A model generated the notes under the pieces. It did no database searches. It saw nothing but the letters and a program-made list of their open reading frames with translations, and was not told the origin of the DNA. From the NCBI GenBank assembly GCA_937894085.1, contig CALCSG010000217.1:2199-66198 (forward strand): DNA of 64,000 nucleotides. The letters are read 5' to 3'. The DNA is from an uncultured Gammaproteobacteria bacterium. Lineage in GTDB: Bacteria; Pseudomonadota; Gammaproteobacteria; GCA-001735895. The translations under genes and the position numbers were made by a program. Below, one piece after another: positions 1 to 40,089 of the stretch (the stretch's first letter is position 1; every line of letters begins with the position of its first letter).

Positions 1-571
1 CATTATCTTCTAACATTGAAATAAATTTCGTAAAATCCAAGTAACGCCAGATCTTTTGATCGCTGTTCTCTGGCGGTAATAATGCTGGATGACAAGCTTT
101 TATAAAAGCAGCTAAACCCTCCTTTCGAGCTTTTAAAGCTAATTGAAAAGCCTCTTCTTCACCATATTTATTAACAGAAAAAGCTTGGCCTTTATGCTTA
201 CCATTTCCAATAGGCCAATGTGCCTGCCATACTAAACTTTTATATCTTTTGCCTTTTTTTGTGGATGACGAGTAGCTTCTATTTACGCCAGTTGCTCCTG
301 ATACGTTTCTACGATTTGCTTTTCTTTTCCCTGAAAGTGTAAGTTCAGTGTTTGGGTTTTCGTAGTACTGGCTTTTTACTGCATCTCTGAATAATTTTGC
401 AGCCTCAAGAGAGCCATCTTTACCATCATATTTATTATCATTAAAGAAATGATGGAACTTATTTCCGTCTCGCTGAAACCTTACCCACCAACCATGCAGA
501 CCTACTTTGTGAGGCACTTTAGGTTCTTGGTCTATACGAGAAATATTTGAAAGTTCTGGACTTCTTTGCAT
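1..571 (-). CDS. AP2-domain DNA-binding protein, 5' part only (gene runs off window start); start ATG at 571-569
   Basis: Reverse-strand translation from the ATG at 569-571 gives MQRSPELSNISRIDQEPKVPHKVGLHGWWVRFQRDGNKFHHFF...GKRYKSLVWQAHWPIGNGKHKGQAFSVNKYGEEEAFQLALKARKEGL, i.e. two AP2/ERF-like repeats (W..G.F.T.EEA.AYD pattern). The frame continues open to position 1. Not in the ORF track because it is truncated. Low-GC context. Confidence 0.5.
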   Translation of the reverse strand, partial: MQRSPELSNISRIDQEPKVPHKVGLHGWWVRFQRDGNKFHHFFNDNKYDGKDGSLEAAKLFRDAVKSQYYENPNTELTLSGKRKANRRNVSGATGVNRSYSSSTKKGKRYKSLVWQAHWPIGNGKHKGQAFSVNKYGEEEAFQLALKARKEGLAAFIKACHPALLPPENSDQKIWRYLDFTKFISMLEDN

Positions 572-697
572 AGGAAATAATTACCTAGGTATAACGCCCA
601 GCATCAGAGGGAAAGCGAAGTGGAGGGAGGAACGACTGGAACTTTGCTTTTTCCGGCTGCATGCAATTGTTAGCTTTTGTTAAATATAAATACACAA

Positions 698-1567
698 TTA
701 TTTGAAAACCTTATCACCAAACATTTCATAGTCATGCATAAAAGATTCAAATTGTTTCGAATTTGAGGCTTTTTCTGGGTTATCTCTAATGTACTTTTCA
801 ATTTTTTCAGTATTAATTTCTTTTCCCAACTCATTAACATGATTAGCTTTTTCGATTATGTAATCTATGAACCCATCTGGCCACTGGTATTTTCGGGGAC
901 TTATTTTACCTGATCTTAATGCTATTCTGCTTGACCTCATCTTGTTTATGTTACTGCTTTTAATAAAGCCCAAAATGATGAATGAAGGTAATTTTGTATA
1001 AGTGAAAATGTTACTAGAATTTCCTGCAATATCCATCGAAATTGTTCTTAAGAAATACCCATTAATGTTTGATGGTAACCCCTTTCCAGTTACAGACTCT
1101 ATTCTATCAACAGGGAACAAGTGCTGTTCATATTGGAATAAGTTATCGACCTTTCCTAGTATAAATTTTGATATATGGATTTCAGCATCATCAAGTAGTT
1201 GAATGTACTCTGGTGGTTTACCAGCAATATCATTTTTACTTCTAATATAAGTTAGCGTTCTCCATGAAATAGAAGCACAGAATTTAGATAACCAATCTCC
1301 ATAATTGGCATTACTTATACCGTTATTTACAAATGGATAAAATATTTTATTAGCAAATTTTGTTTCCCATTTGGAAAATATATCCTCGCAGTCACCGCAA
1401 AGCCAAAATTCTTTTGCTAAATCTTGGGCGCGTTTATGCACCTCGTTTGATTCTCGTAAAAAACCTGTAATAGAAGTTTTTTTTGACCATTTACCAATGA
1501 ACTTGGGAATAAAGTGGCTAACCTCTAGATCTTTCTTCTTTTTACAAAGTTTACATTTTCCCTGCAT
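698..1567 (-). CDS. Hypothetical Cys-rich protein with HNH-like N-terminus (CxxC...LEVSHFIP...LCGDC)
   Basis: 289-aa ORF. N-terminal CKLCKKKKDLEVSHFIPKF...WLCGDCEDIF resembles the HNH nuclease CxxC-(DH)-CxxC zinc-finger scaffold. AT-rich codon usage unlike the rest of the window. The C-terminal ~200 aa are unrecognised. Confidence 0.45.
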   Translation of the reverse strand: MQGKCKLCKKKKDLEVSHFIPKFIGKWSKKTSITGFLRESNEVHKRAQDLAKEFWLCGDCEDIFSKWETKFANKIFYPFVNNGISNANYGDWLSKFCASISWRTLTYIRSKNDIAGKPPEYIQLLDDAEIHISKFILGKVDNLFQYEQHLFPVDRIESVTGKGLPSNINGYFLRTISMDIAGNSSNIFTYTKLPSFIILGFIKSSNINKMRSSRIALRSGKISPRKYQWPDGFIDYIIEKANHVNELGKEINTEKIEKYIRDNPEKASNSKQFESFMHDYEMFGDKVFK

Positions 1568-2096
1568 TGGTGACTTCCGTATTTAAGCTAACAGTTTATT
1601 GGAAGGAATCCTTTCTATCAGGTTCTAGAAGGCTTCCTTCTATTTCTATAATCCCTGTTTTCATTACAGGATACTAATTGCGCGCCTGGCCATATCAATC
1701 AAATAACCGGGGGCCGTTACACAAAAAATTTGACACCAGTAACGACCGCTCTCATCACTTTCCTACCTAATGCAACGCATGTAAACAATGACCGAAATTA
1801 TGGATACTCATTACTGCCGAATTGCTTTAACTGACTGGCAAAACATCTTAACTAAGTCATTGGTTCGGTTGACGATGGTATCTATGTTGCGTAGCCAGCA
1901 TTACTTTTAAAATGGATTGCATCCCTTGTTTCCGTAAACGGTGCGTCCGTGCACCACTACTCCAGCTAATAACATGCCGGTATGACGGTTTCGTGTTATT
2001 TACTGAATCATCTTGCTAATCACCCTGATTTATCAACGATATCCTGGGCAACCAATCTATCAATAACTAATCGCCATAACATCTGAAACAGATCCG

Positions 2097-2342
2097 CTAA
2101 TGATCACACTTATCCATTTTCTCTTTTGATTTGGGTAACACCGATATGAGGAAGGTCGAGATCAGGATTATCGGTGACAGTAAGAGCAGGATAAAACCGA
2201 AAAACATGATGATATGCTGCAAATTCCAGATGTGGGGCACCACATGCATGGCGACCAGTATCAGCATAATACCGGCTGTAAAGAAGATAAGCGAAGCTGC
2301 CACTCCTTCGCGCATTGTTTGACAACCTAAGGTTAATAACAT
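2097..2342 (-). CDS. Small two-TM membrane protein, last gene of the cytochrome operon
   Basis: 81-aa ORF, strongly hydrophobic (two predicted helices), 30 bp downstream of the NapC/NirT-family gene on the same strand. Confidence 0.4.
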   Translation of the reverse strand: MLLTLGCQTMREGVAASLIFFTAGIMLILVAMHVVPHIWNLQHIIMFFGFILLLLSPIILISTFLISVLPKSKEKMDKCDH

Positions 2343-2372
2343 GCTTTTATCCTCAATCTATTTTTCTGATTT

Positions 2373-3020
2373 TTATTCATTTTCAGCCATTAGCTTTTTC
2401 GCTGTGCCTTTTTCCAGCCCGAACTCGAGCTCGATCATTTCATTCCAGGCAGCTCTTTTGAATGTTTTTTCATGCGGAACCTTGCGGTGTACCAGGTTGT
2501 AATGACATTCGATACAGCTTTTATCTTTAGCGTCTTCCAGGTGAATTTTACGGGTATCCGGACGATCACCGTAAATCGCCTCTTTAACATGACAGCGTTT
2601 ACAGGTTGCCGAGTCTCGATCTTTAAACCATTTCCTGGCTTCAAATGCTGCTTCTGGTAAATGCAGTGCATTCATCACGGGGTCATCATAGTTAGGGCCA
2701 AAAACAGCCCCTTTCACCTGCTTGATAACATCTTTACCTCCAATGAAATGATCCCAGGTTGCCGATATCACTCCTTCAGATACGTGACAGTCTCCACAAC
2801 TCGCCTGTACACCCGAACTGGGTTTGTAATGCTTCGACTCACGGTATGGCTCGGCAACAATTCCCATGGAATGGCAGGTCGTACAAAATTCTTCACTGCT
2901 GGTGTAATGATCAAACTCAATCAGGAAAAGAATGAACACAATACCTGCTATACCTCCAACTAACAGGGCAAACAGAACATGGCGGGTTATAAATGCGGGT
3001 AAAGGTAATTTAATCTTCAT
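2373..3020 (-). CDS. NapC/NirT/NrfH-family membrane-anchored tetraheme cytochrome c (quinol dehydrogenase)
   Basis: 215 aa with an N-terminal TM helix and four CxxCH motifs (CTTCH, CGDCH, CKRCH, CIECH) at NapC/NirT-like spacing. Overlaps the upstream octaheme gene by 11 bp. Confidence 0.85.
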   Translation of the reverse strand: MKIKLPLPAFITRHVLFALLVGGIAGIVFILFLIEFDHYTSSEEFCTTCHSMGIVAEPYRESKHYKPSSGVQASCGDCHVSEGVISATWDHFIGGKDVIKQVKGAVFGPNYDDPVMNALHLPEAAFEARKWFKDRDSATCKRCHVKEAIYGDRPDTRKIHLEDAKDKSCIECHYNLVHRKVPHEKTFKRAAWNEMIELEFGLEKGTAKKLMAENE

Positions 3021-4464
3021 TGCCTTTTCCCTGCCCGAAACCCAGTATAGGATTCGCTTTTTGCGGATGATTTAACCAGTCATGATGCTCTGAACCATTG
3101 ATATGCTTTTTGATCAGCGCATCACCTTTCTCTTTTCCAGCAACTTCACGTATCTGGGCTAGAAATTTTCCGTAAAAATCACTGCCCAGATCACTCATGC
3201 CTTTCCAGGTTGAACTGGGACTGCCCATCGCGGCACCATGCCTGGCCAGCGTTCCATGTGTATGCCACAGATTCCAGTAGGTGACTTCTAATGGTTCATC
3301 GAAAGGAAGAGGGGTCAACAGGCCTGCAGAATATAGATCCTGCATGATTGCCTGTGCAGGCTTGCCATATTTTTCATTATAAAGCTCGACCACATTATCA
3401 AATTGTGACATGGCATTTTCGCTAAACCCCTTACTGTGGCATTCCAGACAGGTTTTTGTCATCGCACCTCTGCGACGTTTAGGCGATGCAACAGCCTTAA
3501 CCTTGCCCATACTACCATCCATTTTTGAAATGCTTTCGCCACGTCCCGGTAAAGGCTCGGAGGTTGATAGTTCGCGTTTATCACCATCTTCAAAAATTAT
3601 TAAATATTGCTGTTCTGACACAGCTGAATTCAGGTTCCACGAGTCACGCATTCCAACATCGTGAGTGGATTTCATTTTTCCTGCAGCGCCCATATGACAG
3701 GTAACACAGGTAGGTGCAGCCGAATAATCCTGTCCTGCTACCCATTGATCACTGTCCATATTCATGTCTTTTTTATGTGCTTCATACATCATGCCATGCT
3801 TTGAAGTTTCATAAACTTCCTTATCGGGTGAATCGGGGCCGGAGTGACAATAAATACAGGCCTGTGGTTCACGCGCCTGTGCTTTGGAAAATGTATGCCG
3901 GCCATGACAGGCAGAACAGGAACCGACAGATCCATCAGGGTTAATTCGTCCAATACCTGAATTAGGCCAGGTGGATGGATCGAGTGAACCGTCACCACGT
4001 ACTTTAACTTCAGATCCATGGCACTTTGCACAACCCGCATCATTGATCGAAGGACTGCCAAAATGTTGAGAAAGTGCAGGCATACGGTTTTTAATAATTG
4101 ATAGAGCTTTGGTATGCACAGAACCTTTCTGTTGTTTTAATTCAGTTTCATGACAACGCCCGCAATCTTTGGGTGACACGATGGTAGCAATAATACTGCC
4201 TTCATGTTCGATAGCATCGATGTCTTCTTCATAAGCCTGATGACAATCCAGACAGTTAACATTAGCTGCCGCATGTGCACTGTTTTTCCATTGATGGGTT
4301 AATCCTGCCGAGGACCTGGCATGACAATCTACACAGGCTTTTCCTTCTTCACTACCCCAGGTACTGGAGTCCAGTGTTACTTTATCAGCCACAGCAGACG
4401 CCGAGAATAACAGGATAAATATGACTGTAAAAGCTGATAAAGGGGTCTGTGTAAAAGGCTTCAC
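3010..4464 (-). CDS. Octaheme c-type cytochrome, hydroxylamine-oxidoreductase (HAO) family-like, periplasmic
   Basis: 484 aa with a signal peptide and eight CxxCH motifs (CVDCH, CLDCH, CGRCH, CAKCH, CSACH, CIYCH, CVTCH, CLECH). No CxxCK. Coupled to a NapC/NirT (CycB-like) gene, as seen for HAO-family octahemes. Confidence 0.65.
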   Translation of the reverse strand: MKPFTQTPLSAFTVIFILLFSASAVADKVTLDSSTWGSEEGKACVDCHARSSAGLTHQWKNSAHAAANVNCLDCHQAYEEDIDAIEHEGSIIATIVSPKDCGRCHETELKQQKGSVHTKALSIIKNRMPALSQHFGSPSINDAGCAKCHGSEVKVRGDGSLDPSTWPNSGIGRINPDGSVGSCSACHGRHTFSKAQAREPQACIYCHSGPDSPDKEVYETSKHGMMYEAHKKDMNMDSDQWVAGQDYSAAPTCVTCHMGAAGKMKSTHDVGMRDSWNLNSAVSEQQYLIIFEDGDKRELSTSEPLPGRGESISKMDGSMGKVKAVASPKRRRGAMTKTCLECHSKGFSENAMSQFDNVVELYNEKYGKPAQAIMQDLYSAGLLTPLPFDEPLEVTYWNLWHTHGTLARHGAAMGSPSSTWKGMSDLGSDFYGKFLAQIREVAGKEKGDALIKKHINGSEHHDWLNHPQKANPILGFGQGKGNED

Positions 4465-4489
4465 TGCATTACTCCACTATTATTATTTT

Positions 4490-4525
4490 TAGTTATATTA
4501 AAACAGCCCCATTTAAGGGGCTAAA
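4490..4525 (-). terminator. Hairpin (agcccc-atttaa-ggggct), terminator/attenuator-like between cytochrome b and the HAO-like gene
   Basis: 6-bp GC stem at 4505-4510/4517-4522, followed on the minus strand by GTTTTAAT. Sits in the 92-bp gap between two minus-strand genes. Confidence 0.3.
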
Positions 4526-4556
4526 TTCAATTGCTGGTATTAATAAATATTTCTAA

Positions 4557-5156
4557 TTATTCTTTCTCAAAACCGAAAATCATTGCTTTGAGGTATCCAA
4601 GAAATTCATCACTGGTGGTCAAAGCCAGATACAGATGAACGATAAGAAATGCTAACAACATAAAAGCCATTGCGGTATGAATCAGCGCAATCACTAACAG
4701 GCTAACATCCCCAAGACCAATCATTGGCCAGTAAGGATAAAAAAAGTAGAGCAGACCACTTAGTACCGCAAATGGAAGCATAAAGATATGCAATGACAGG
4801 TATGCCATGCGCTGCATGGGATTTAGCTTTGAGCGTCTGGTTTTATGGTGAGGATGTTCACTACCACCAATAAATATATCCACCCCGTAATACTTCACCA
4901 TCGCTAACAATTTATTCATATTGGCAGGAATATATTGCTTCCACTCGCCGGTAACCATGTGCCAGAAAATACCCAGAAACCAGATGGCTATCAAAGACCA
5001 GGCAGCTACGATGTGAATATCAACCGCTTTTTCAAAGCCAAAAAAATCAAAAGTATCATGAATCTCAAAACCAGTTACCAGTAAGGTAATTACCAGTAAC
5101 CCCTGAGACCAGTGCCAGATCCGCTCGAAGCGGGTATACATCATGACTTCTTTCAT
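4557..5156 (-). CDS. Dihaem cytochrome b membrane subunit (Ni/Fe-hydrogenase-type cytochrome b / PhsC/CybB family)
   Basis: 199 aa with four TM helices. N-terminal RFERIWHWSQ motif and conserved His positions typical of PF01292-type cytochrome b. Start overlaps the upstream octaheme gene stop (ATGA). Confidence 0.8.
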   Translation of the reverse strand: MKEVMMYTRFERIWHWSQGLLVITLLVTGFEIHDTFDFFGFEKAVDIHIVAAWSLIAIWFLGIFWHMVTGEWKQYIPANMNKLLAMVKYYGVDIFIGGSEHPHHKTRRSKLNPMQRMAYLSLHIFMLPFAVLSGLLYFFYPYWPMIGLGDVSLLVIALIHTAMAFMLLAFLIVHLYLALTTSDEFLGYLKAMIFGFEKE

Positions 5157-6781
5157 TGTTTCTTCCTCCGTCTGGAAAATAACACTCGAACCAGACCATG
5201 CAGGCCGACCCCACCAAAAGTTCCTGCTACTGCCAGCCAGCCGATAGTGTCGAGGATGCTATTGTTATCGCGTCCCGGCATATAAAAATCTGTCAACTTA
5301 TCCAGTCTGCCGCCTTTGCTGTGGCAATCTGCACAACTTAAGGTCTGATCCTTGGGGGCAACCATATGCGCCAATGGCATGTGCATGGTGGTTTCAATGA
5401 AACCATATTCACCACTATAGTCTGCTCCCGCTTCTTTCATGGCCTCACTGATAGCACTGTCCCAGTCGTAAGATTTCCAGTAGGCAGCCTTATCCTTACC
5501 AAACAGATGGATCAGTGCCAGAGTGTTATTACCCTTGTCATAAGGTTGTTTACCGCGCATTACCTTAAAAGGCCAGATACGTGCATTCGGGTCGTCATAG
5601 GATCCGGAAAAATTATTTAACTCGACCACTTCTTGCGGATTGATTTTTTCATCCAGTTGCTTGAAATGAACATTACCGGATAACCAGGCATATTCCGGCT
5701 CAACATTTTCAGCCCATTTAAAATTTCCTTTTTTAGTGACATAGGTGACATAACCATGCTCATCTTTCATGGTGATTTCTTTTCCATCCGCATCTTTTTT
5801 ACCTGCAGTTGTCCAGTCCCACCATAATTTTGAAGGTACACCGCCTCGTGCATAAGCAGGTATGTGACAGGTCGTACAGGCTACTTTATCGGTATGATCA
5901 TTGATTTTATTATTCAAAGTCGATTTGTGTGGCGTCATCCCATGACATGACTCACAGGTAGCTCGACTATTATCATCACGTCCGGGCACATCGATACCGT
6001 GTGTATCTTTGGCAACCGGGTTATAACGACTACCTTTAACATCATGTCCATCAGTAGTATGACATTCACTACATCCAAAATTCAGGCCATCCACACCCAT
6101 GTGAACATCCAGCTCTTTTTTCGGATTGGTCATCGATGAGTCCAGATCACCGTGTTTGACTCCATCTCCGCCGCCGCCATAAAAGTGGCAGACACCGCAA
6201 TTCTCTCGACGTGTTTTACCTACCTTTTGCGCGACATCGCTTAAATCAGCCACTTTCCAGACTTTCTTACTGCCTTTCGGAAAAATCTTCTCCTTGTAGT
6301 TTGGATGACCGGCATCGGTTGGAAATTTCTTGTAGGTATCGGTAGTGTCGTGACAAACCAGACAGTCAACTTTATCTTCTGCAGTAAAATCGAAGCTGTC
6401 ATCTTTCCAGCCATAACCAATATGACAACTTGTGCAGCGTGGTTGATTACTGGTAATGGATAAACAGAAATTATTTATTACGCTTTTTTTACCGACTTCT
6501 TCACCAGTATCGGGATTGGTAAACGTCCAGTTCCAGTGCTTGGTTTTATGTAACTGTTTACTGGCCTCGGTATGACAACTGAGACAGGCTTTAGTGACTT
6601 CAGGACCTGTTTTAAAAGGTTTTTGAAGTTCTTCGAATTTACTGTGATCAGCGGTTGAAGTAGATTTTTTGGTAGTTGCACTTTCCTGCATAGCCAGACT
6701 TACACTGGCAAAACTGCTCAGATAAAGACACAGCGATATCAGAAAAGCAGATGTTTTATAACTGCTATTACGGGAAATCAT
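5153..6781 (-). CDS. Octaheme c-type cytochrome, OTR (octaheme tetrathionate reductase)-like, with C-terminal TM anchor
   Basis: 542 aa with a signal peptide and eight CxxCH motifs (CLSCH, CTSCH, CLVCH, CGVCH, CSECH, CESCH, CTTCH, CADCH). Hydrophobic C-terminal helix followed by RRRKKQ. Translationally coupled to the cytochrome b gene. Confidence 0.6.
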   Translation of the reverse strand: MISRNSSYKTSAFLISLCLYLSSFASVSLAMQESATTKKSTSTADHSKFEELQKPFKTGPEVTKACLSCHTEASKQLHKTKHWNWTFTNPDTGEEVGKKSVINNFCLSITSNQPRCTSCHIGYGWKDDSFDFTAEDKVDCLVCHDTTDTYKKFPTDAGHPNYKEKIFPKGSKKVWKVADLSDVAQKVGKTRRENCGVCHFYGGGGDGVKHGDLDSSMTNPKKELDVHMGVDGLNFGCSECHTTDGHDVKGSRYNPVAKDTHGIDVPGRDDNSRATCESCHGMTPHKSTLNNKINDHTDKVACTTCHIPAYARGGVPSKLWWDWTTAGKKDADGKEITMKDEHGYVTYVTKKGNFKWAENVEPEYAWLSGNVHFKQLDEKINPQEVVELNNFSGSYDDPNARIWPFKVMRGKQPYDKGNNTLALIHLFGKDKAAYWKSYDWDSAISEAMKEAGADYSGEYGFIETTMHMPLAHMVAPKDQTLSCADCHSKGGRLDKLTDFYMPGRDNNSILDTIGWLAVAGTFGGVGLHGLVRVLFSRRRKKQ

Positions 6782-6866
6782 GATACCCCCTCCCTAAAGT
6801 TTATTGCTTATAGTATCTCTGACCAAAGGCTGTAGACATTCATCTACAGCCTTTACCAGAACCCTC

Positions 6867-8156
6867 TTACAAGGAGTTTTCAGCCGAAGCAATCATCTTC
6901 GGAGCAGTTACATCTGTGGGGAGTTTAGTAAACTTTTTAACCAGACCAGGCCATAGCAGGTTGTAATATAACTCTGCACGAACCAGCTCTACACCTTTAG
7001 CAGGTATCGAGTATTCCAGGTCACGTTTTTCAAATGCTTTCAATCGAGTATCTGCACCCTGACCTTTTGCAGTTGGTGGACCTGTTGGCTTTCCATCACC
7101 ATCAACTAGAGTCAAAAACATAAATGCTTGTTTATCTTCTTTAGCGGGGTGGCCTTTAGCATTTTGCCAAACTACATTTCCGCTCTTATCATAAGCTGAA
7201 ATCTTTACATAGATATTTCTAAAGGGAGCGCCTGTAGGCATGGTATGTGGCTGTTTATTCTTAATCGTAACAGTCGACATTATGTTACCGCCATTCTTCT
7301 TACTGTCCATACTGAATAGTACTGAACGCTGTAACATACCCAAATCATGTCCACCGCCCATACTGTGATCGGCTACAGCATCATTAGTCGGCATGTGGCA
7401 TGACAGGCAATCAACCTGTGCATTACTGGCAATGTATTCATCACCCGTTGCACATAGAGGAACACCGTGAGAATTATTGCGCTTATCATGACAACCCATG
7501 CAAGCATCTGAACTTCTCAACTGCGTTGGGTTACTTTCCATAGGCATCGCCTGAATGGTCTTACCATCAATGGTTACCGCCTCGCCCAGATGTGGGTTCG
7601 GTTTTTGATCTGCTTCTCCACCACCAAAACCAAATGCATCACCGGCTGATGCCAGTTTCTGTAATTTAGTATTAGAATGGCGACCGGATCCCTGCAGCAC
7701 GTCAGAAACTTCATATGCCATCATACCGAGCTGCATTTTTCCATTTGCGGCGGTAGTACCTTTAAATTTTTTCAATGTATGACAGGCTACGCAGTTGACG
7801 CCTTCAGCATAGGCAGGTGTCGCGTCAAGTTTGGTCTTTTTATCTTTGGCGGCATTCGGGGCATGGCACTGTATACAAACTGGAAATTTGCCTGCTTTTG
7901 TTTTTACACCCTCCTGACCAGGATCACCAACAACGTTTCTATAAAATGTTCCATGAATGGGATCGTTGAACGCGGTACTGTTCGCATGCATCGAACCTTT
8001 CCATTGTTTATAGATTTCTTTATGGCAGGTTTTACAGGTTTCAGATGAGACCTGGTGAATTGATTTGTCAGCAAACACATTTGTAGCTGAGACTAAACTT
8101 AAACCACAAAATACAATTGCTGAAAATAACATCGAAGTTTTTGTCTTGTTGCGCAT
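6867..8156 (-). CDS. Pentaheme c-type cytochrome with a ~150-aa haem-free C-terminal domain
   Basis: 429 aa with a signal peptide and five CxxCH motifs (CKTCH, CIQCH, CVACH, CMGCH, CLSCH). First gene of the minus-strand cytochrome cluster, with a 494-bp AT-rich upstream region. Confidence 0.7.
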   Translation of the reverse strand: MRNKTKTSMLFSAIVFCGLSLVSATNVFADKSIHQVSSETCKTCHKEIYKQWKGSMHANSTAFNDPIHGTFYRNVVGDPGQEGVKTKAGKFPVCIQCHAPNAAKDKKTKLDATPAYAEGVNCVACHTLKKFKGTTAANGKMQLGMMAYEVSDVLQGSGRHSNTKLQKLASAGDAFGFGGGEADQKPNPHLGEAVTIDGKTIQAMPMESNPTQLRSSDACMGCHDKRNNSHGVPLCATGDEYIASNAQVDCLSCHMPTNDAVADHSMGGGHDLGMLQRSVLFSMDSKKNGGNIMSTVTIKNKQPHTMPTGAPFRNIYVKISAYDKSGNVVWQNAKGHPAKEDKQAFMFLTLVDGDGKPTGPPTAKGQGADTRLKAFEKRDLEYSIPAKGVELVRAELYYNLLWPGLVKKFTKLPTDVTAPKMIASAENSL

Positions 8157-8650
8157 TCCTGTCCTTCCTTATATGTTTTTATAAATTATAAAAAGAGCAA
8201 CATTCAACATAAAAATTTTAGCTTTATGGCTGCTTGAAAGATTAGTTTTGACTGGAGACTTTCACTAATTCAATTCTAAACTTCGCACTTCATCGACTTT
8301 CGTTTGCTAAAGACGAAAAATACGCGACTTATACTGCTCTCAAAGTATTTAAATATTTGGGGGTTTTTATTAAAAATCGAAAACAAAACCTAATTTTCTA
8401 ACTTTCATATTCATCCCTTCTTTATATTTTTTTTAAGGTAGCTAAAATATTAGCTTAAACACGACAACATAAGTTAATAACTCTTACAATTACACCGAAA
8501 ACAGGGGCTATACTGCAAAATAAGTGGCATTTAATTAATGTAAATTAATTTTTTAGCGGATACATACAGGCATCTTTTCTGCTTATCAACTAGCGGGAAG
8601 ATCTACTTAAAGAATAAAATATTCCTTATATAAAGACCGTTTAATCGATC

Positions 8651-11542
8651 TTATATTTGAGCTAAAAGTAGTTTTTTCATTTCAGCAGAGGGCACTGCCG
8701 GACTAAACAAATATCCCTGCATCTGATCACAGCCCTCAGCAAGCAATAGCTCAAATTGCTGAGGAGTTTCCACACCTTCGGCGATCAGATGCAGGTTCAT
8801 GCTTTTACCTAAGGCTATAATAGCCCGGGTAATTGCCAGATCCTCCTGGTCGCCGGGTAGATCACGCACAAATTCACGATCAATTTTCAATTTATCTACC
8901 GGAAACCGCTTTAGATAACTGAGCGATGAATAACCTGTCCCAAAGTCATCAATGGCTAAATCGACTCCCAAAGATTTTAATGCATTGAGTGTATGAATCG
9001 CCTGCTCGGCATTTTCCATTAACATGCTTTCGGTTATTTCCAGCTCAAGATAACCAGCATCAAGCCCGGATATCTGCAATATCTGCTGCACTTGCGAAAC
9101 AATATCAGCTTGAGTGAGCTGACGTGCTGATAAATTGACTGACATTTTTAGCGCAGGTAACCCGGCCCGCTGCCACTCAACGGCCTGACGACAGGCCTCG
9201 AACAGTACCCACTTTCCTATCGGTTCTATCAACCCGCTTTCTTCTGCGAAGGGAATAAACTGGTTTGGAGATACCAGACCTGTTTGCGGATGCTCCCAGC
9301 GTATCAGAGCTTCCATGCCAACTATCTGGTTAGAACTTAATTCGATCTGAGGTTGATAATAAAGACGAAATTCTTCACGATTTAACGCATGCCGCAAATC
9401 AACCTGAAGCTTTTGACGCTCTTTGGCGATGGCTGTCAGAGTATCAGAAAAGTACTGAAATCCATTGCGCCCCAGGTCTTTAGCCCGATACATAGCAGCA
9501 TCCGCATTTTTAATCAGGGTGTCGACATTTTCGCCCTGCTCAGGATAAATCGAGATACCGATACTACTGGAAACAAAAAGCTCATGACCGTCAATAGCAA
9601 ACGGCTTTCTGAATCTTTCCAGTATCTTCTCTGCGACCAGAGCGGCATCCTGTGGTTGATCAATCTGCTCAACCAGAATTAAAAACTCATCGCCACCCTG
9701 ACGTGCAACGGTATCACCCTGACGCACAATTTCCTTTAAAATCGTTGACGCACTCTGTAATAATTTATCGCCTACCGCATGCCCAAGAGAGTCATTGACC
9801 TCCTTAAAATTATCCAGATCTATGAACAATAAAGCCATATTCACTTTGCTTCGACTGGCTCGATGAATGGCATGTTCCAGGCGTAACTGAAATAACATGC
9901 GATTCGGTAAATTCGTCAGCGGATCGTGATGTGATAAATATTCAAGTCGCTGCTGGGTTTCTTTAATTGCACTTATATCACCGAAAACACCTACATAATT
10001 TGTCAGCTTACCGGTTTCATCTTTGAGTGTATTTATAGTCAGCCACTCCGGGTAAAGCTCACCTGATTTGCGCCTATTCCAGATTTCTCCCTGCCAATAA
10101 CCTTTTGCCTTAATAGATGACCACATTTCTATAAAGAAAGGGTTTTTATGTTGCCCGGAATGCAGGAATGAGGGATTCCTGCCGATGACTTCCTGTTCGC
10201 TATAACCAGTAATTTCTGTAAATGCCGGGTTGACACTGACAATATTGACATCAGCATCGGCAATAATCACACCTTCCACGGTTGACTCTACAATCTTGGC
10301 CGCCAGTAACTGCTGCTTTTCAGCCTGCTTTCGGCGCGAAATATTCCTGATGACACCTGAAATAGCCAAAGGTATACCATCATCATCCGCAATGGCTCGA
10401 GAGATAGCCTCTACGTCAACAAAATCACTATTGATACTATTTAGTTTAAACTCTGCAACGCAGTGCTCCTCCCTGGCGATAGCCTGGTCGGAAAATAGCT
10501 TCACACAACGATCATGATCTACAGGGTCAACAAATTCACTCCAGTGACGGGCCAGGGAAGACTCAACTGAATTTCCCGTAAGCTTTTCCCATGCGGGACT
10601 GAGAAACTCCCAGCAGCCATTAATATCGATACGAAAAAGCACATCTTCCATATTATTAATGACGGTTCTATAGGCTTCTCTACTTTCTTTTAATTCAGTT
10701 TCCCGTTTACCGATATTTTCCGCCATAGAATTAAATGCGAGACTTACCTGGTCCATATCCTGATCGGCTTCTCTATTCAGACGTACAGAGTAATCACCAT
10801 TTGAAAGCCTGACGGTGGCCGCATTCATACTTTTCATTCGCTTCAGAAGAATTCGATTCAACATCCAGGATGCGATAATTAAACTGACAAGAAAAATTAA
10901 TGTCTTAAGGATCAGCTCTTTTTTCAGCTCGGACAATAACCTGTCCTGGAAAAGTTGAGCGGGCAATTTTATACTTAAAATTCCCCGTAAATCATCAAGT
11001 TTATAACCATAGGCGGTATCATAATTTTCACTGATACTGGCCGGCGCATTTTTTTGTTCTCCATGGCAGACAAGACATTGGGTAACTATGCGCAGAGGTG
11101 CTGAAAAGTGATAAGCCTGTTCCCCGGTGGGTTTAATAAAAGGTACAAACCTGTCTGTCGCCTGTGGGTTCTGTCTGAAATAATTCATTGCCTCCAGTTC
11201 CACACTATCGGCCTGATTCTGAGGGTTTCTGGGTCTGTCCGAAACACTGTTAAACCATATACCATCATCAGTTAATAAATTATATTCTTTTGCGATTCTA
11301 CTAATTGAGTGAGCCGGCAAAAAACGGATAGTTTTATCATTAACGGAAATATTTTCTTCGATGAATACCCGTTGATAAACTCGCCGCATGGAAACCAGAA
11401 CACCCTGTAATATTTTTGATTCCCGGTAGATGCCGGCTTTAACGGATTCGACACTGAGTAGATAGCCACGATATTCCACCAGCCCAAATGCCAGTAACAT
11501 AATACCGCTTATTGCAAAAAGTGTTTTTGTCTGGAGATTCAT
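8651..11542 (-). CDS. Signalling protein: periplasmic haem-c sensor domain (CxxCH, DUF3365/Tll0287-like) - TM - HAMP - 2xPAS - GGDEF - EAL
   Basis: 963 aa. N-terminal TM, then a periplasmic domain with CLVCHGEQ, then a second TM plus HAMP. PAS domains, GGDEF (RQGGDEFLIL) and EAL (EALIRW...DDFGTGYSS) motifs are intact. Confidence 0.85.
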   Translation of the reverse strand: MNLQTKTLFAISGIMLLAFGLVEYRGYLLSVESVKAGIYRESKILQGVLVSMRRVYQRVFIEENISVNDKTIRFLPAHSISRIAKEYNLLTDDGIWFNSVSDRPRNPQNQADSVELEAMNYFRQNPQATDRFVPFIKPTGEQAYHFSAPLRIVTQCLVCHGEQKNAPASISENYDTAYGYKLDDLRGILSIKLPAQLFQDRLLSELKKELILKTLIFLVSLIIASWMLNRILLKRMKSMNAATVRLSNGDYSVRLNREADQDMDQVSLAFNSMAENIGKRETELKESREAYRTVINNMEDVLFRIDINGCWEFLSPAWEKLTGNSVESSLARHWSEFVDPVDHDRCVKLFSDQAIAREEHCVAEFKLNSINSDFVDVEAISRAIADDDGIPLAISGVIRNISRRKQAEKQQLLAAKIVESTVEGVIIADADVNIVSVNPAFTEITGYSEQEVIGRNPSFLHSGQHKNPFFIEMWSSIKAKGYWQGEIWNRRKSGELYPEWLTINTLKDETGKLTNYVGVFGDISAIKETQQRLEYLSHHDPLTNLPNRMLFQLRLEHAIHRASRSKVNMALLFIDLDNFKEVNDSLGHAVGDKLLQSASTILKEIVRQGDTVARQGGDEFLILVEQIDQPQDAALVAEKILERFRKPFAIDGHELFVSSSIGISIYPEQGENVDTLIKNADAAMYRAKDLGRNGFQYFSDTLTAIAKERQKLQVDLRHALNREEFRLYYQPQIELSSNQIVGMEALIRWEHPQTGLVSPNQFIPFAEESGLIEPIGKWVLFEACRQAVEWQRAGLPALKMSVNLSARQLTQADIVSQVQQILQISGLDAGYLELEITESMLMENAEQAIHTLNALKSLGVDLAIDDFGTGYSSLSYLKRFPVDKLKIDREFVRDLPGDQEDLAITRAIIALGKSMNLHLIAEGVETPQQFELLLAEGCDQMQGYLFSPAVPSAEMKKLLLAQI

Positions 11543-11685
11543 AACATATGACTATAGCTGCTTACAGCTAAAAAAAGTTATGAAATTGAATATTAAAACC
11601 TATAAAACATGATCAGATTTCTGCATTCTATTCAAATCAGTTCATTAAAAAAACTTTTAATCTGAACTTCAGGAAACTACGGCAG

Positions 11686-13122
11686 TTATTTAATAATTGC
11701 TGCAAACTCTTTAACCAGTGCATCAGCAGTAATACCATTAGCAAATTTAGTCACAAAGCTGCCATCCGGGGCCATTAAATAAAGGCTGGCTGTATGGTCC
11801 ATGGTATAAAGGCTCGAATCTGATTTATCTCTCGGGCCTTTTTCATACTTAACCCTGAACTGATCGGCAACCCGTTTTATCATCTGTTCAGAACCGGTAA
11901 GCCCAATCAGGCGTTGATCAAAGTAACTGACATAATTTCGTAACAGTTTTACCGTATCCCGTTCAGGATCAACAGAAATGAAATAAGGTTGAACCTGCTC
12001 TGCCAGTACACCCATCTGTTGCAGTGCCTGAGTCAATACCGTTAAACTGGTTGGACACACATCAGGGCAGGAAGTATAACCAAAAAACACCAGTGAATAT
12101 TTTCCCTTCATATCCTGTTCAGTCACAGTTTGTCCAAGATGATTGGTCAGAAAGAAACGCCCTCCCAACCCATCAATGACGGGACTATCGTCACCATAGG
12201 CCGCCATCCTTGCTTTTGCGGCAGCATCCAGATTAGCATTCAGACATCGCTTGATGACATCTGTATTGTATTCCATCAATTTAAGATAAAGTTCCGGCCC
12301 CGCTTGCAGATCAAGCCCCAGAGTATCCAGTTCACCAATATTTATACTCTGCCCTGCGGTTAACAACTGAAGATTTTTCGCTGGCATACTCTTGTCTATA
12401 AACAAACATGCAGCTTCATGACTGGTTATTCTTGTCCTGACTTTAAGCAAGTCTGTAACCCTTTCTACATCCCACGGAGAACCAGAAACTCGATCCAGTG
12501 TTTGCAGCGCATAGGCCTGCTCAAAATAATTCAGGTTGTCATAATACGAAACGCCGAGACCGGCTTTTAATCCTCGATATCCATATTCGTATTCTTTATC
12601 AATACGACGTAACGGATCCAGCATGGCCATTCGATTTCTAATATAAATATGGGAGCGGGCAGGGTCCAGCTGGACCAGCGCTTCGGTCAACTCATCTAAC
12701 ATGATGATTGCATTACGGTCATCCATCCAGAAAAAGGGATCTCGAAAATCGGGATTCTGTCGTGACGGTAAAATTTTCAGATCGGGGCTGGACAGTAACT
12801 CGATAACTTTGACCGTTTCTGGTAACTGGCTCACTGTTGACTGCAAGGTTTTTTCCAGTTCCTGGCCTACCCAGATAAATAAGCTGGATTCAGCAAGCTG
12901 CTGTTGCTGAGTTTCGCTTAACTCAAAGTTATAGGGTGTGTTTTTTCCATCAATTAACAGCAGGGGCTCGCCTATATCCTGCATCAGGCCGGAGACTATA
13001 GAATGCACCGGTTTAATACTGGTCACCACCCTGAATTTATTTGCTGACCAGGCAGGCAGACTGGTAACCATCAACCCACAACTAACGAGCAGGATAAATA
13101 GCGGAAGAATTTTTTTTATCAT
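11686..13122 (-). CDS. Fusion protein: ZnuA/TroA-like periplasmic metal-binding-fold domain + SCO1/SenC copper chaperone (thioredoxin-like, CxxxCP)
   Basis: 478 aa. The N-terminal half aligns to the ZnuA architecture (VVTSIKPVHSIV...LFIWVGQELE). The C-terminal half carries the SCO1/SenC signature GKYSLVFFGYTSCPDVCP. Signal peptide present. Confidence 0.7.
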   Translation of the reverse strand: MIKKILPLFILLVSCGLMVTSLPAWSANKFRVVTSIKPVHSIVSGLMQDIGEPLLLIDGKNTPYNFELSETQQQQLAESSLFIWVGQELEKTLQSTVSQLPETVKVIELLSSPDLKILPSRQNPDFRDPFFWMDDRNAIIMLDELTEALVQLDPARSHIYIRNRMAMLDPLRRIDKEYEYGYRGLKAGLGVSYYDNLNYFEQAYALQTLDRVSGSPWDVERVTDLLKVRTRITSHEAACLFIDKSMPAKNLQLLTAGQSINIGELDTLGLDLQAGPELYLKLMEYNTDVIKRCLNANLDAAAKARMAAYGDDSPVIDGLGGRFFLTNHLGQTVTEQDMKGKYSLVFFGYTSCPDVCPTSLTVLTQALQQMGVLAEQVQPYFISVDPERDTVKLLRNYVSYFDQRLIGLTGSEQMIKRVADQFRVKYEKGPRDKSDSSLYTMDHTASLYLMAPDGSFVTKFANGITADALVKEFAAIIK

Positions 13123-19138: not shown

Positions 19139-20059
19139 TTAATGTTTTATCGGCATGATAGCCGGCAGTTCTGCAGCATCTGCCGGGGTAGCCAGTGCCA
19201 CGACTTGCGGACGTTGAAGTTTGGATAGCGGGCCGAGACTGTTCAGGTAGCTATGGTCAAATTCATTCTTTCGATACACAGAGAAATCAACCGGATTATC
19301 GCGAAAACTTTTTAAAGGTTGTCCAAGGCTACGAATACCAACTTCACGATCTCTGCGTACACGTGAAAGATTGATTTCTACAGGAATGACCTCTTCGCCA
19401 CTACCAGCCTGATGAATAACATAACCGGAAGGCCCTACCACAATGGAGTGACCGTTGCCGCATTCACCAGTGCCGTTAATATCGAAAAAATAACACTGAT
19501 TGATCGCTGCCATTGCTCTTGCAATAGGAAGCTCAACATCCCGGTCGATGGTATCCGTCATGGTTGGATGCAGGATCACCTCAGCGCCCATAGATACCAG
19601 GGTGCGTGTAGTTTCTGGAAACCACATATCGTAGCAGATGGATACACCGAATCGCCCTACTTCTGGCACATCAAAAACGAGAAATTCCGTACCCGACTCA
19701 ACGCCGAGTTCATAGGGACGAAATGGAAACATCTTGCGGTATCGACCCACCACATGGCCATACGGATTGATCACGGATGCTGTGTTGTACAATAGTTCAC
19801 CGTAACTTTCAAACATAGAACCCGGCAGTAACCAGAGGCCATAGCGGCTGGCTATTTCACAAAAATGGGCTTCTGCCGGCCCGGGCATGGGTTGCGCGTG
19901 CTCTGGTGACGGGCCGAAGGTTGCAAGCTCGCTAAAAACTATCATCTGTACCCAGGGGAAACGGTTCACTATGGAGACAATGCGTTTTTCCATTGCCTCG
20001 ATATTATTACCTGCCAATGAAACATTCATTTGGACACCTGCAATACAAAAAGGTACCAT
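19139..20059 (-). CDS. Carbon-nitrogen hydrolase family amidase (nitrilase superfamily)
   Basis: 306 aa. Contains a GVSICYDMWFPE-type catalytic Cys block consistent with the E-K-C triad fold. Confidence 0.8.
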   Translation of the reverse strand: MVPFCIAGVQMNVSLAGNNIEAMEKRIVSIVNRFPWVQMIVFSELATFGPSPEHAQPMPGPAEAHFCEIASRYGLWLLPGSMFESYGELLYNTASVINPYGHVVGRYRKMFPFRPYELGVESGTEFLVFDVPEVGRFGVSICYDMWFPETTRTLVSMGAEVILHPTMTDTIDRDVELPIARAMAAINQCYFFDINGTGECGNGHSIVVGPSGYVIHQAGSGEEVIPVEINLSRVRRDREVGIRSLGQPLKSFRDNPVDFSVYRKNEFDHSYLNSLGPLSKLQRPQVVALATPADAAELPAIMPIKH

Positions 20060-20554
20060 TATTTTTTACCCCCGTTAAAAATAAATACAGTAACTCATTG
20101 ACCGCTGAATGCTACCTGCCTAATAAGACCGTAAGAATATATCTTTATTTGAATATGCTAGCTTTTATTGTATATGTTATGGCTATACGATACTTTCACA
20201 GAGTTGAAACTGTATATTCAGTTTACTACATTTAACAGAAACCTGATTCCTCTATCATGAAATGATGCATCAGCTTAGCCAGAATAAATTTCAGCTGATT
20301 AATTATAAAAAATGTATAGTTGGCTTTTTTCATACCTTAACTTTCAACATCCATGCTTTAAGTATGATAATTTTAGTGCAAGCATAATATATACAAAGAA
20401 TCGTAAAAACATTATAAACAACCATAGAAGCATCGATTCATAAAGAATATTATGGATAGTTATTAAAATATCCAGATATAAAAAGGCCGAATTTCTGTGA
20501 AGTCAGACCATTTCAATCGTTTCGGTATTAACCAAAGTCAAGAGGAATAAAATA

Positions 20555-21529
20555 ATGAAAATTAAAAATAAAATTTTTTGTAGTGCGCTGGTATCCGCAG
20601 CGATTTGCTGGGCGGGAAGTGTTACTGCTGCAGACCAGAAATACGTAACGATAGGTACTGGTGGTCAAACAGGTGTGTATTATGTTGTAGGTCAGTCCAT
20701 CTGCAAACTGGTCAACCGTGGCCAGAAACAACATGGTATCAAATGTACAGCACCATCTACCGGTGGTTCTGTGGCGAATCTGAACGCGATCAAGGCTGGT
20801 CAGCAGAATATGGGTGTGGCCCAGTCTGACTGGCAATATCATGCCTACAAAGGCACCAGCAAGTTCGAAGATCAGGGTGCTAACAATAATCTACGTCATG
20901 TTTTCTCGGTCCATCTGGAGCCCTTCACAATTGTTGCCAGAGCTGATTCCGGCATCAAAACTTTTGATGACCTGAAAGGCAAGCGCGTTAACATCGGAAA
21001 CCCCGGTTCAGGTCAACGCGGCACCATGGAAGTTATCATGGAAGCAAAGGGCTGGACCAATGATGTATTCAAGTTCACCTCCGAATTGAAATCAGCAGAA
21101 CAGGCTCAGGCGCTGTGTGATAACAAAATAGATGCAATGGTGTTTGTGGTCGGTCACCCCAGTGGGTCCATCAAGGAAGCAACCACTTCCTGCGATTCTA
21201 TTCTGATACCGGTAACAGGTCCTACAATTGATAAGCTGGTTGCGGATAATTCTTACTATGCGAAAGCGGTTATCCCGGGTGGGATGTATACAGGTACGGA
21301 TGCGGATACCAATACCTTTGGTGTGGCAGCGACTTTTGTATCCTCTACCGATACCGATGAAGATACTATCTACCAGGTGGTAAAAGCTGTTTTTGATAAT
21401 TTCGAAATTTTCAAAAAATTACATCCAGCGTTTGTAAATCTTGATAAAAAGAAGATGATCAATGATGGTCGTACCGCACCTTTGCACGATGGTTCGGTAA
21501 AGTATTTTAAAGAAGCTGGTTTAATGTAA
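20555..21529 (+). CDS. TRAP transporter solute receptor, TAXI family
   Basis: 324 aa with a signal peptide. TAXI-family signature (TIGTGGQTGVYY...GGSVANLNAIKAGQ). Confidence 0.85.
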   Translation: MKIKNKIFCSALVSAAICWAGSVTAADQKYVTIGTGGQTGVYYVVGQSICKLVNRGQKQHGIKCTAPSTGGSVANLNAIKAGQQNMGVAQSDWQYHAYKGTSKFEDQGANNNLRHVFSVHLEPFTIVARADSGIKTFDDLKGKRVNIGNPGSGQRGTMEVIMEAKGWTNDVFKFTSELKSAEQAQALCDNKIDAMVFVVGHPSGSIKEATTSCDSILIPVTGPTIDKLVADNSYYAKAVIPGGMYTGTDADTNTFGVAATFVSSTDTDEDTIYQVVKAVFDNFEIFKKLHPAFVNLDKKKMINDGRTAPLHDGSVKYFKEAGLM

Positions 21530-30816: not shown

Positions 30817-33800
30817 TTACAATTGAGCCGGTACAATGGATTCTGTTTGCCGATAATCTGCAAGGGGTGCTGCACTGACTTCAACAAGATCTTTTCTTAC
30901 AAAACCGAAGAGTTCACGTAGAACAACCGATAGTGTGGTGAAATCCGCTGCTGGTACAGCATTCAACTCGGCGATCAGTTGCACACAGTGCTCAATTTGA
31001 AATCCATGCGCAGCTCTCCAGCTTTCCATTTGATTACTCGATTCATCCTGTAGCGGACTATTTAGCACATCGATACAGATAGACTTCTGCAGATATAACA
31101 GATCATCGCGCAGTGACACGCGAGCAATCGCCTGCCAGCGCGTATTACGTGGCAACTCGCCTATCTTTTCTCTCAGCCAGGGAAGTTGCAGTAAATCACC
31201 CAACCCAAAAAATGTTGTCACCACGCTATCCAGCTCGATATGAGTCTGGATGGAGATCTCCACTAATTCCATCGAAGCGGAAAGGGTATCAAAAATCATA
31301 CTGTGTGCAGCAAGCTGTTCGGGAACGCCGGATTCCAGCAAGTGTCTATATTTCTGGTTGACCTGCGCCTGATGATGAATGAAATCTGACTGCAACAGGG
31401 CGGCGACATACTGTATTCGAGCCTGATATCGCTCCACGTTGAGTTTGATGTGTATCGGGCGCGGCGCATTCTGAATCATCCAGCGCACCGAGCGTTCCAG
31501 CAACTTACGCGTCTCAAACATCATGTTCTTCTGTACATCCCTGTCGCTAATATCCAGACTCTCAATCTGCTTCCACACATTATTTAAGCCAAATATCTCC
31601 CGCACAATGATAAATGAGCGTGTGATATCGCCTTCCGTTGCGCCCGTCTCTTCCTGCATTCTATACATAAAGGTAATGCCTGCTCGATTGACTAAACCGT
31701 TAGCAAGTTCGGTGGCGATAATTTCGCGACGTAAACGATGTCCCATCATCGCGTCCGGGTAAGCACTGCGTAACGCAGTGGGAAAGTAATCGATTAGTGT
31801 CTGCTCCAGGTATGGATCATCAGGAAGGTCAGATGCAATCAGGCCTTTCGACAGACCGATTTTTACATACGCAATCAACACCGACAGTTCCGGTGCTGTC
31901 AGGCCTTCTGACGCACTCAGTCGTTCCTGCATAACCTCATCCGTGGGCAGATATTCCAACGCCCTGTTCAACCCGCCCTGATGTTCCAGTTTACGAATCA
32001 AACGACCATGAGCTTCAAGCATCCTGCGCGAATTAAAACTGGACAGGCTCAGGGCCTGGGTCTGATAAAAATTATTTTTCAGCACCAGAAGCGCGACCTC
32101 ATCCGTCATGCTGGCGAGTAATTCACTACGCTGTTGTAAGGTCATTTCTCCGCTAGACATGACGGTATTCAGCAGTATCTTGATATTGACTTCATGATCA
32201 GAACAATCGACGCCGGCGGAGTTATCGATGGCATCGGTGAAGATGCACCCTTTTTGTTGAGCGAACTCGATACGTCCAGACTGGGTCAGTCCCAGATTTC
32301 CACCCTCTGCCACTACCCTGCAACGTAATTGATTGCCGTTGATGCGTAACGCTTCATTGCTGCGGTCGCCCACATCTGCATGTTGCTCATGCGATGCCTT
32401 GACATAGGTGCCAATGCCGCCATTCCACAGCAGATCAACCCTGGCTTTTAACAGCAGCTGTATGAGTTCAACAGGGGTCAGCCGGGTCACGCTGATTTGC
32501 AGTCGATGAGCCATCTCTTCACTGAGCTGTATCGACTTCGAACTGCGCGCAAAGATACCGCCGCCCTGAGAAATAATCGACCTGTTATAATCTTCCCAGC
32601 CTGAGCGAGGCAGATTGAATAGCCGCTCGCGCTCAGCATAAGACTGTTCACAATCTGGGTTGGGATCGAGAAATATATGCTGATGATTGAAGGCGCCAAT
32701 CAGCTCAATGTTGCGCGATAGTAACAGCCCATTGCCGAACACATCACCACTCATATCGCCAATACCGACGACCGTGAAGGGATTATTATCTATATCCATC
32801 GACAGATCTTTGAAATGTCGCTTAACCGACTCCCAGGCGCCGCGTGCAGTAATGCCCATGCCCTTATGATCATAGCCTACAGAACCGCCTGATGCGAAAG
32901 CGTCGCCCAGCCAGAATTGATAGGAAGCAGCGACCTCGTTGGCGATATCAGAAAAAGTTGCAGTGCCTTTATCAGCTGCCACAACCAGGTAAGGGTCATC
33001 TCCATCATGACGAAAAACCCGCTCTGGCGGAACGGGTACACCATCAACCAGGTTGTCAGTAATATCCAGCAATCCGCTGATGAAGGTCCGGTAACAATTG
33101 ATGCCTTCAGCAAGAATCTGATCGCGTGTTCCCTGCACGGGCAACTGTTTTGTCAGGAAGCCGCCCTTGGATCCACCTGGAACAATTACCGAGTTTTTCA
33201 CCATCTGTGCCTTGACCAGCCCCAGCACCTCGGTGCGAAAATCCTCCTGCCGATCAGACCAGCGTAATCCGCCGCGCGCTATTTTGTCGCCGCGTAAATG
33301 CACACCTTCCACACGTGGGGAATAAACAAATATTTCATATTTAGGCCTGGGTTCAGGCATGTCTGGCACGCGAGCAGAATCGAATTTAATCGACAGGTAA
33401 TCATGTTGTCCACCCTCCCTGTTTAACTGGAAATAATTGGTGCGCAGGCTGGCCGAGATTGCGCCCATAAAACGCCGGATAATACGGTCTTCATCAAGAC
33501 TTTCTACCTGCTCCAGAAGTTGAATAATCTGCGCCTCCAGCTGTGCATTACGTTCTTCACGCGAGCCCGTGAAATCCGGGTCAAAGCGCGTCTCAAACTG
33601 CTGAATCAATATTGCAGCAATGTGCGCATTTCCTACCATCGCCTGGATCATATAGTCGTGACTGAAGGTGCCACGCACCTGGCGAAGGTAATGCGAATAG
33701 GCGCGTAAAATATCGACCCGACGCCAGTCAATAATGGCGCGTAGAATAAGCCTGTTGAATCCATCGTTAGAGGATTCACCCTGAAATATACGTTTAAAGG

Positions 33801-39452: not shown

Positions 39453-39722
39453 TATTAGAAAGCATTAAAAAGCAATAACTGGGCCAATAATTGGACTTAA
39501 CAATTAATTCCTTAAATAACAATAACTTATCTTAATACTTTAAGTAAAAAGAAAGGAGTAAGGGGGTGTAACCAAATGAATAAGTTCTTAACACATATTC
39601 AATGAATAAACTGATCAAAAAAGGTTACCTAAGAGCTTAAGACCTTTATCAGATCTATAAAGGCCAAAAACTGTGACAGCAGAAAAAGGGGTAATAAGAT
39701 AACGAGCTAAACTATCATTTGG

Positions 39723-40052: not shown

Positions 40053-40089
40053 TTAATCTCTCTCAAATATAGATTGGATATAATGACTT

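Follow-up and report, generated by a model that had tools for sequence, protein, structure and literature searches.

Cassettes of integrons are enriched in small defence systems, with AbiV among the commonest (Darracq et al., bioRxiv 10.1101/2024.07.02.601686; the counterpart study on mobile integrons is 10.1101/2024.07.02.601719), and two further systems, Sirona and Nemetona, have been described as distantly HNH-related (10.1101/2024.07.02.601686). Arrays that are not adjoined by an integron integrase are known as CALINs, attC-site clusters that lack integron-integrases; about half of them are found in genomes with an IntI gene at some other place, and an integron can be split by rearrangements (PMC4889954). 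The current analysis concerns the left end of a 64,000-nucleotide stretch of DNA from an uncultured gammaproteobacterium (contig CALCSG010000217.1, positions 2,199 to 66,198), hereafter called the window. Positions 1-1592 very probably represent the proximal end of an integron cassette array on the minus strand, which is classified as a CALIN because no integron integrase adjoins it. The first cassette carries a gene for a protein of 289 amino acids (aa), and the second a gene for a larger protein with AP2 domains.

The locus shares with previously described CALINs (PMC4889954) a minimum of two attC sites that are on one strand and separated by less than 4 kb, as in the IntegronFinder definition, cassettes of the size of an open reading frame (ORF) with unassigned functions, a composition unlike that of the host, and the absence of an intI gene or pseudogene nearby. 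It differs in that only its first 1.6 kb lies in the window and in its upstream junction, a bare GTTAGCT core beside 504 bp of non-coding DNA in place of an attC or attI site. The sedentary chromosomal integrons that serve as defence stores resemble it in their single-gene cassettes, the presence of an AbiV cassette and a putative HNH-related cassette, and the Vibrio cholerae members of the 289-aa family, but here the integrase platform is missing and the defence role is deduced from sequence. The element is thus of a known kind, an integron cassette array, and leaves current ideas about integrons unchanged.

Two independent cassettes bounded by attC-type sites

Evidence for the array was obtained with a covariance model of attC (R1), which was trained on 15 attC sites from seven other genomes, none of them from this organism, and whose training alignment shows covariation in five L-box pairs. 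With filters off, R1 returned a single significant match in the 64-kb window, a full-length minus-strand site at 589-675 with 21.8 bits and E=0.0024; the second-best match had E=1.1. The metagenome contig L002 matches the window with 100% identity across 5047 bp and continues past its start. It contains four imperfect palindromes of 66-87 nt (...YTAAC to GTTA...), each of them at the end of a unit in gene direction. These four palindromes are the top four R1 matches on L002; they lie within 2.7 kb on one strand, and one of them is located inside the window. The elements of the left end are as follows.

595..1591, minus strand: cassette 1 (997 bp), comprising the 289-aa gene and its attC; its 5' R' remnant GTTAGCT (1592-1586) is the exact complement of its own R'' box AGCTAAC (675-669)
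589..675, minus strand: attC1 of cassette 1, with R'' box AGCTAAC (675-669), R' box GTTATAC (595-589) and a predicted crossover between G595 and T594
1..594, minus strand: cassette 2, truncated by the window edge; in full length it measures 1256 bp (L002 4454-5709), beginning directly behind the G of the attC1 R' box and extending to the G of the attC2 R' box
1586..1592, minus strand: core-type junction G/TTAGCT at the upstream array end, read directly from the sequence, where the first cassette meets non-cassette DNA
698..1567, minus strand: gene of the 289-aa protein, with an HNH_2-like N-terminus (putative zinc-binding pattern CxxC...SH...CxxC, aa 1-68) and about 220 further conserved aa of unassigned fold
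1..571, minus strand: 5' part of the cassette-2 gene (aa 1-190 of 383; ATG at 571), encoding two AP2 units and then a putative DarT-like ADP-ribosyltransferase domain that lies mostly beyond the window

The boundaries of the units follow a common rule. In cassette 2, the R'' box GTATAAC is the complement of the opening GTTATAC, the corresponding opening and R'' pairs are GTTAGGTG / CACCTAAC in the third unit of L002 and GTTAGTGG / CCACTAAC in the fourth, and the opening is exactly complementary to the cassette's own R'' box over 7 or 8 bases in all four complete cassettes of L002 (4/4). This complementarity is apparently the footprint of circular cassettes that were recombined at the G/TT of attC. 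The identification of attC1 is based on the covariance model, on this boundary rule and on its identity of 78% over 65 nt to attC2; neither attC3 nor attC4 resembles these two. Both the R'' and the R' box of attC1 are near the consensus (RYYYAAC / GTTRRRY), with one off-consensus base each, and 589-675 forms an attC-like imperfect hairpin, for which bulged bases are predicted in bottom-strand folds at positions that cannot be assigned to the canonical ones. Only one ORF is present in cassette 2 between attC1 and attC2. The 289-aa gene and the AP2 gene are accordingly independent mobile units, each bounded by attC-type sites. The sequence-only reading of this stretch, which had treated the two genes as a pair, overlooked the attC site at 589-675 and with it the cassette structure.

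Cassettes with the 289-aa gene are found far beyond this organism. On 33 genome loci with a homologue, R1 yielded 36 matches, all of them on the strand of the gene and none on the opposite one. At least 10 genome loci show the cassette form proper, in which GTTATCT is followed by 12-16 nt and the start codon, and the stop codon is embedded in AGA-TAA-C and succeeded by the attC hairpin. In Marinobacter daepoensis (L022), the homologue is located 5.6 kb downstream of a divergent intI gene, in an array with 15 R1 attC sites. The 289-aa gene is therefore, judged by these boundaries, a recurrent integron cassette that is distributed over many genera.

Several points weigh against the assignment of the left end to a cassette array. 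The R1 E-value of 0.0024 is derived from a shortened calibration; the window itself contains a single attC site and a single junction, and the array was established from the identical metagenome contigs; intI, attI and the Pc promoter were all unfound at the array; and the far array end lies past the sequence covered, so that the negative result for intI concerns the window side. The folding energy of attC1, moreover, is no better than that of shuffled sequence (DNA parameters, z = -0.27) and was therefore not used as evidence. If one adds that a hairpin scan gave 14 other matches in the window and that an integrase is missing, the repeats might be taken for ordinary intergenic palindromes of the repetitive extragenic or terminator-like type, and the segment for a generic island or prophage remnant. 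This is extremely improbable, given that R1 sets 589-675 apart from everything else in 64 kb, that the R''/R' rule applies in four of four cassettes, that the R1 matches are distributed 36:0 over the strands, that the 289-aa family occurs in the intI-linked array of M. daepoensis, and that neither phage structural genes nor, in 1-12000, a tRNA were found.

The scan for AAC...GTT hairpins by folding energy recovered the true sites together with the 14 chance matches in the window and, being unspecific, was replaced by the covariance model. A second attC or attI site at 1586-1722 (137 nt) turned out to consist of three separate hairpins and not of one attC stem, and it had no R1 match.

Search for the integrase platform and origin of the array

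The orientation of the cassettes places the expected platform, i.e., intI, attI and Pc, to the right of position 1592. In tblastn searches with two queries, IntI1 and the IntI of L022, no intI was detected in the window, including the 62 kb on the expected platform side, and no intI adjoins the first cassette as it does in a complete integron. One 28-bit match of IntI1 (E=0.022) falls inside an unrelated 1634-aa ORF (30817-35721, minus strand) and was judged to be a chance hit; as a positive control, the IntI1 query recovered the intI gene of L022 at 51% identity. Between 1400 and 2500, two short tblastn matches (E=0.14, database of 1.1 kb) were considered as possible intI remnants and dismissed as noise: they include a stop codon, their frames differ and their spacing is wrong.

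The array is separated from the next gene by one further element.

1593..2096, no strand: non-coding spacer of 504 bp (GC 0.411) between the 81-aa ORF (2097-2342) and the array, representing intergenic host DNA or a platform remnant

The spacer showed no intI remnant, attC, tRNA or Rfam match, R1 found no attC upstream of the junction at 1586-1592, and no tRNA is present in 1-12000. The junction ...CCAATAAACTG/TTAGCT bears a loose resemblance to a simple site. Promoter-like sites upstream of the first cassette (9) are as frequent as in shuffled sequence (7.7 +/- 2.5), and no terminator-like site is present on the cassette strand between 2096 and 1568. The present-day mobility and expression of the cassettes are therefore putative, as intI, attI and Pc were not found. 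With respect to the sequence-only reading, its statement that no tRNA or integrase is visible was correct (no tRNA in 1-12000, no integrase in the window), and the model of an island with tRNA, integrase and attachment-site repeats proved to be wrong.

The spacer also contains a G/C-rich palindrome, TAACCGGGGGCCGTTAC, at window positions 1698-1716. The ends of several metagenome contigs fall very close to it (1703-1705), which may be an assembly or coverage effect or reflect real heterogeneity.

The left end is compositionally foreign. The GC content of 1-1592 is 0.349, compared with 0.462 +/- 0.035 in equal-sized windows from the rest of the stretch, none of which is as low (minimum 0.375). 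Within the block, the GC content amounts to 0.322 for the 289-aa gene and 0.373 for the part of the AP2 gene inside the window, and the GC content at third codon positions is 0.28 and 0.26, respectively, compared with 0.36-0.61 for 30 other long ORFs. The low-GC block stops near 1592, where the spacer with its intermediate value begins. The scan thus bears out the AT-rich segment with two co-directional genes, both on the minus strand, that had been recognized from the sequence alone, and rules out a uniform composition. Other dips to a GC content of 0.35-0.39 in 1-kb bins are seen at 8001-9000, 20001-21000, 38800-40400 and 44001-45000; they are milder than the cassette block over 1.6 kb.

The closest named relative of the host is Nitrosococcus, to whose Lon protease the host Lon is 64-66% identical. 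The 81-aa gene is kept in relatives whose NapC/NirT-type cytochrome shows 89% identity, but attC, intI, the 289-aa gene and the AP2 gene are all missing from the 10 kb downstream in them; nucleotide similarity and synteny to them end at 2097. Since the relatives lack the array and the similarity ends at this position, the array is regarded as a lineage-specific acquisition, in agreement with the horizontal origin that had been proposed from the letters.

The neighbourhood on the host side consists of a co-directional cluster of multihaem c-type cytochromes (2373-8156, minus strand), which is located immediately upstream of the array and encodes a NapC/NirT-type protein of 215 aa, a multihaem protein of 484 aa, a b-type cytochrome of 199 aa, a Cytochrome_cB-type protein of 542 aa and a c554-like protein of 429 aa. 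It is accompanied by the conserved 81-aa membrane ORF at 2097-2342 and by a PAS-GGDEF-EAL protein at 8651-11542.

In the other direction, the element extends beyond the window start, as had been suspected. The same sequence is present in metagenome contigs from at least seven samples with a constant cassette order, and the array continues with at least three more cassettes, which encode a membrane protein and AbiV (cassette 4) and include the start of another. The end of attC2 is at L002 position 5716, about 670 bp past the window start. The contigs L001 and L003, from two assemblies, stop exactly at the attC2 R' box, and the others run on into the same third cassette, which suggests strain-level variation in cassette content. 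Cassette 3 (L002 5714-6296) specifies a hydrophobic protein in two ORFs (169 and 71 aa) around a run of eight G near 6060; the split could be a frameshift or a sequencing error, and the two ORFs had no Pfam or PADLOC match.

Three origins are conceivable: the platform was lost, a larger integron was split, or cassettes were inserted at a secondary genomic site (10.1101/2022.09.11.507474). In the second case, the segment would be one arm of a complete sedentary chromosomal integron, whose intI-attI was split off or lies elsewhere and acts in trans, and no orphan cluster of cassettes. The high similarity of attC1 and attC2 is consistent with this, as large arrays on chromosomes typically have attC sites of homogeneous sequence, and so are the contig breaks at the attC2 R' box, with the variable cassette content that they suggest, and the CALINs in genomes with IntI elsewhere (PMC4889954). 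It nevertheless appears rather unlikely, since no intI or remnant was detected in 62 kb on the platform side, attC3 and attC4 are unlike attC1 and attC2, and the cassette order is constant across at least seven samples. A CALIN that no integrase adjoins is the preferred description of the left end.

Candidate functions of the cassette proteins

The 289-aa family is large, with at least 2782 clusters at 50% identity (representatives at E<=1e-3). Its 209 close homologues (52-73% identity) originate from Alcanivorax, Shewanella, Vibrio cholerae, Pseudoalteromonas, Methylophaga, Desulfobacter, Nitrospira and others. In an alignment of 51 diverse homologues, C5, C8, H18, C57 and C60 do not vary and S17 is present in at least 90% of the sequences, so that the CxxC...(S/D)H...CxxC motif noticed at the outset is indeed there, as C5, C8, S17, H18, C57 and C60. 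The likeness to HNH_2 comprises the CxxC, the (S)H-x-I-P and the second CxxC over about 60 residues. The family departs from HNH_2 in a Ser before the His, where Asp or His is usual, in the replacement of the distal His in a C-x-x-C-E context, in an insertion of about 30 residues between the halves, and in its large C-terminal domain without a known fold. The only recurrent Pfam matches among the 51 diverse members are HNH_5 (PF14279; seven members) and HNH_2 (PF13391; six members), all below threshold.

The nuclease assignment has to be weighed against a series of negative or marginal results. The protein of the window itself has no match in Pfam, NCBIfam or PADLOC (Pfam E<=1); HNH_2 is reached only by the family consensus, with 20.7 bits compared with a gathering score of 21 (E=3.7e-4, positions 1-59/66); and no solved structure corresponds to the model computed for the 289-aa protein. 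The HNH-like N-terminus claimed in the sequence-only reading is hence plausible and borderline: the motif and the consensus score speak for it, the score stays just under the gathering value, and the C-terminal domain, called unknown there, has no structural match.

Apart from integrons, homologues occupy accessory slots of other mobile elements. In a Pseudomonas prophage (L024, 8272-10867), the homologue comes directly behind GpU and GpD, tail genes of the P2 type, at a position that frequently harbours accessory genes; in a Vibrio plasmid, it is accompanied by a zeta toxin and RadC; and in two related Pseudomonas prophages (L025, 8991-10888; L033, 4212-7318), it divergently adjoins a C5 cytosine DNA methylase. 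The layout of the latter two is reminiscent of a restriction-modification pair, and the cassette copies are without a methylase.

Together with the HNH_2-like head, these divergent methylase genes could be taken to indicate that the 289-aa protein is a restriction-type enzyme, i.e., a type IV, McrA-like endonuclease or the nuclease partner of a methylase, and not an abortive-infection effector. Because the two prophages are related, they count as one observation. The absence of a methylase from the cassettes and the lack of similarity between the C-terminal domain and known modified-DNA readers make a restriction enzyme improbable.

The protein of cassette 2 measures 383 aa in full, of which 190 are visible in the window. 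Its structure model (predicted local distance difference test score, pLDDT, 84.9) shows two units of three strands and a helix, one at residues 10-68 and one at 96-160; an alpha/beta domain comes after them. The tandem AP2 units reported earlier are thus recovered in the model, with Pfam AP2 (PF00847) matching one stretch, residues 114-151; this is the sole match of the window's two protein pieces in PADLOC, Pfam and NCBIfam. In the full protein, residues 168-378 match the PADLOC profile of the defence candidate PDC-S31 (profile positions 11-234/245, E=3.8e-28), and three further PDC-S31 profiles match as well. Only residues 168-190 of this domain lie inside the window, and the effector domain, mostly outside it, was overlooked in the sequence-only reading. 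R176, Y177, H242, S248, E313 and E315 are among the invariant residues.

The C-terminal part is a putative DarT-like ADP-ribosyltransferase domain. NCBI gives the name DUF2971 to stand-alone relatives of about 247 aa, the DUF2971 family is predicted to consist of DarT-like ADP-ribosyltransferases (PMC12522546), and one of its members, Aristaios, has been validated as a single-gene antiphage system (PMC11381338). Against this assignment stands the Pfam DUF2971 score of the AP2 protein, which with 14.6 bits remains below the threshold of 22. Other differences from DarTG and Aristaios are the two AP2 units fused to the N-terminus and the lack of a DarG-type macrodomain antitoxin, none of which was found in cassette 2.

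AP2 homologues elsewhere also follow an attC site, beside other genes. One of them, P0134 (L091, 7305-13161), is surrounded by small co-directional ORFs, including a Cass2-type integron-associated protein and an acetyltransferase. No R1 attC match was obtained in L091 at E<=0.05; the locus may represent an array whose attC sites belong to another type.

Bacterial AP2 domains are often fused to HNH homing endonucleases or located beside them. A functional HNH and AP2 module of the phage or homing-endonuclease type, as had originally been proposed, would be in line with this association and with the adjacency, common direction and similar GC content of the two genes. It is very improbable for several reasons. 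An attC site separates the genes, and each of them obeys the cassette boundary rule alone; in each of the 33 genome loci of the 289-aa family, AP2 and AbiV homologues are missing within 10 kb of the 289-aa homologue; in five loci (L087-L091) of the AP2 homologues P0123 and P0134, the neighbours differ and no gene of the 289-aa family was called beside the AP2 gene; no phage, intron or intein context was seen; and the AP2 protein has its own effector domain. The two genes are apparently neighbours through cassette insertion and not partners.

Proposed mechanism and implications

The most probable course of events begins with an integron integrase, encoded elsewhere or acting in the past, that would have recombined folded bottom-strand attC sites at G/TT and thereby inserted the cassettes one at a time. 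Any expression of the cassettes, which probably lack a promoter of their own, would depend on weak internal promoters or on transcription that reads through from the co-directional cytochrome operon; read-through is proposed because there is no terminator-like site between 2096 and 1568 and the promoter-like sites are at chance level. Cassette 1 may provide a zinc-stabilised nuclease head of the His-Me-finger type (HNH_2-like), joined to the domain of about 220 aa, which would probably be sensing or regulating. In cassette 2, the two AP2 units may direct or gate a DarT-like ADP-ribosyltransferase that acts on DNA, and the outcome would be growth arrest or blocked phage replication.

The cassettes most likely represent small single-gene anti-phage or anti-plasmid systems. 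This interpretation is suggested by the AbiV gene of cassette 4, the PDC-S31 match and the richness of integron cassettes in small defence systems; the role is putative for both families. From the association with defence islands that was suspected at first, the defence-related role is hence plausible in view of AbiV and PDC-S31, and the notion of a joint module was abandoned.

A more far-reaching proposal combines three elements. The 289-aa family would be a new single-protein nuclease defence system, the AP2 protein the first antitoxin-less DarT-like DNA ADP-ribosyltransferase that is guided or gated by a sequence-specific AP2 module, and the array would have been seeded at an attG-type site downstream of a respiratory operon. 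The novelty of the 289-aa family is supported by the absence of a Pfam family, by the lack of a structural match for the C-terminal domain of about 220 aa and by its occurrence in cassettes and in accessory slots of prophages and plasmids. As a whole, this combination is tentative and rather doubtful.

Overall, the vague AT-rich island at the left end is replaced by a precise label, an integrase-less cassette array in an uncultured gammaproteobacterium related to Nitrosococcus. Two compact and widespread candidate defence genes are flagged by the analysis, of which the 289-aa family is large and unannotated. The putative fusion of AP2 units with an ADP-ribosyltransferase bears on the question whether a fused DNA-binding module, instead of an antitoxin, can restrain or target a DNA-modifying toxin.

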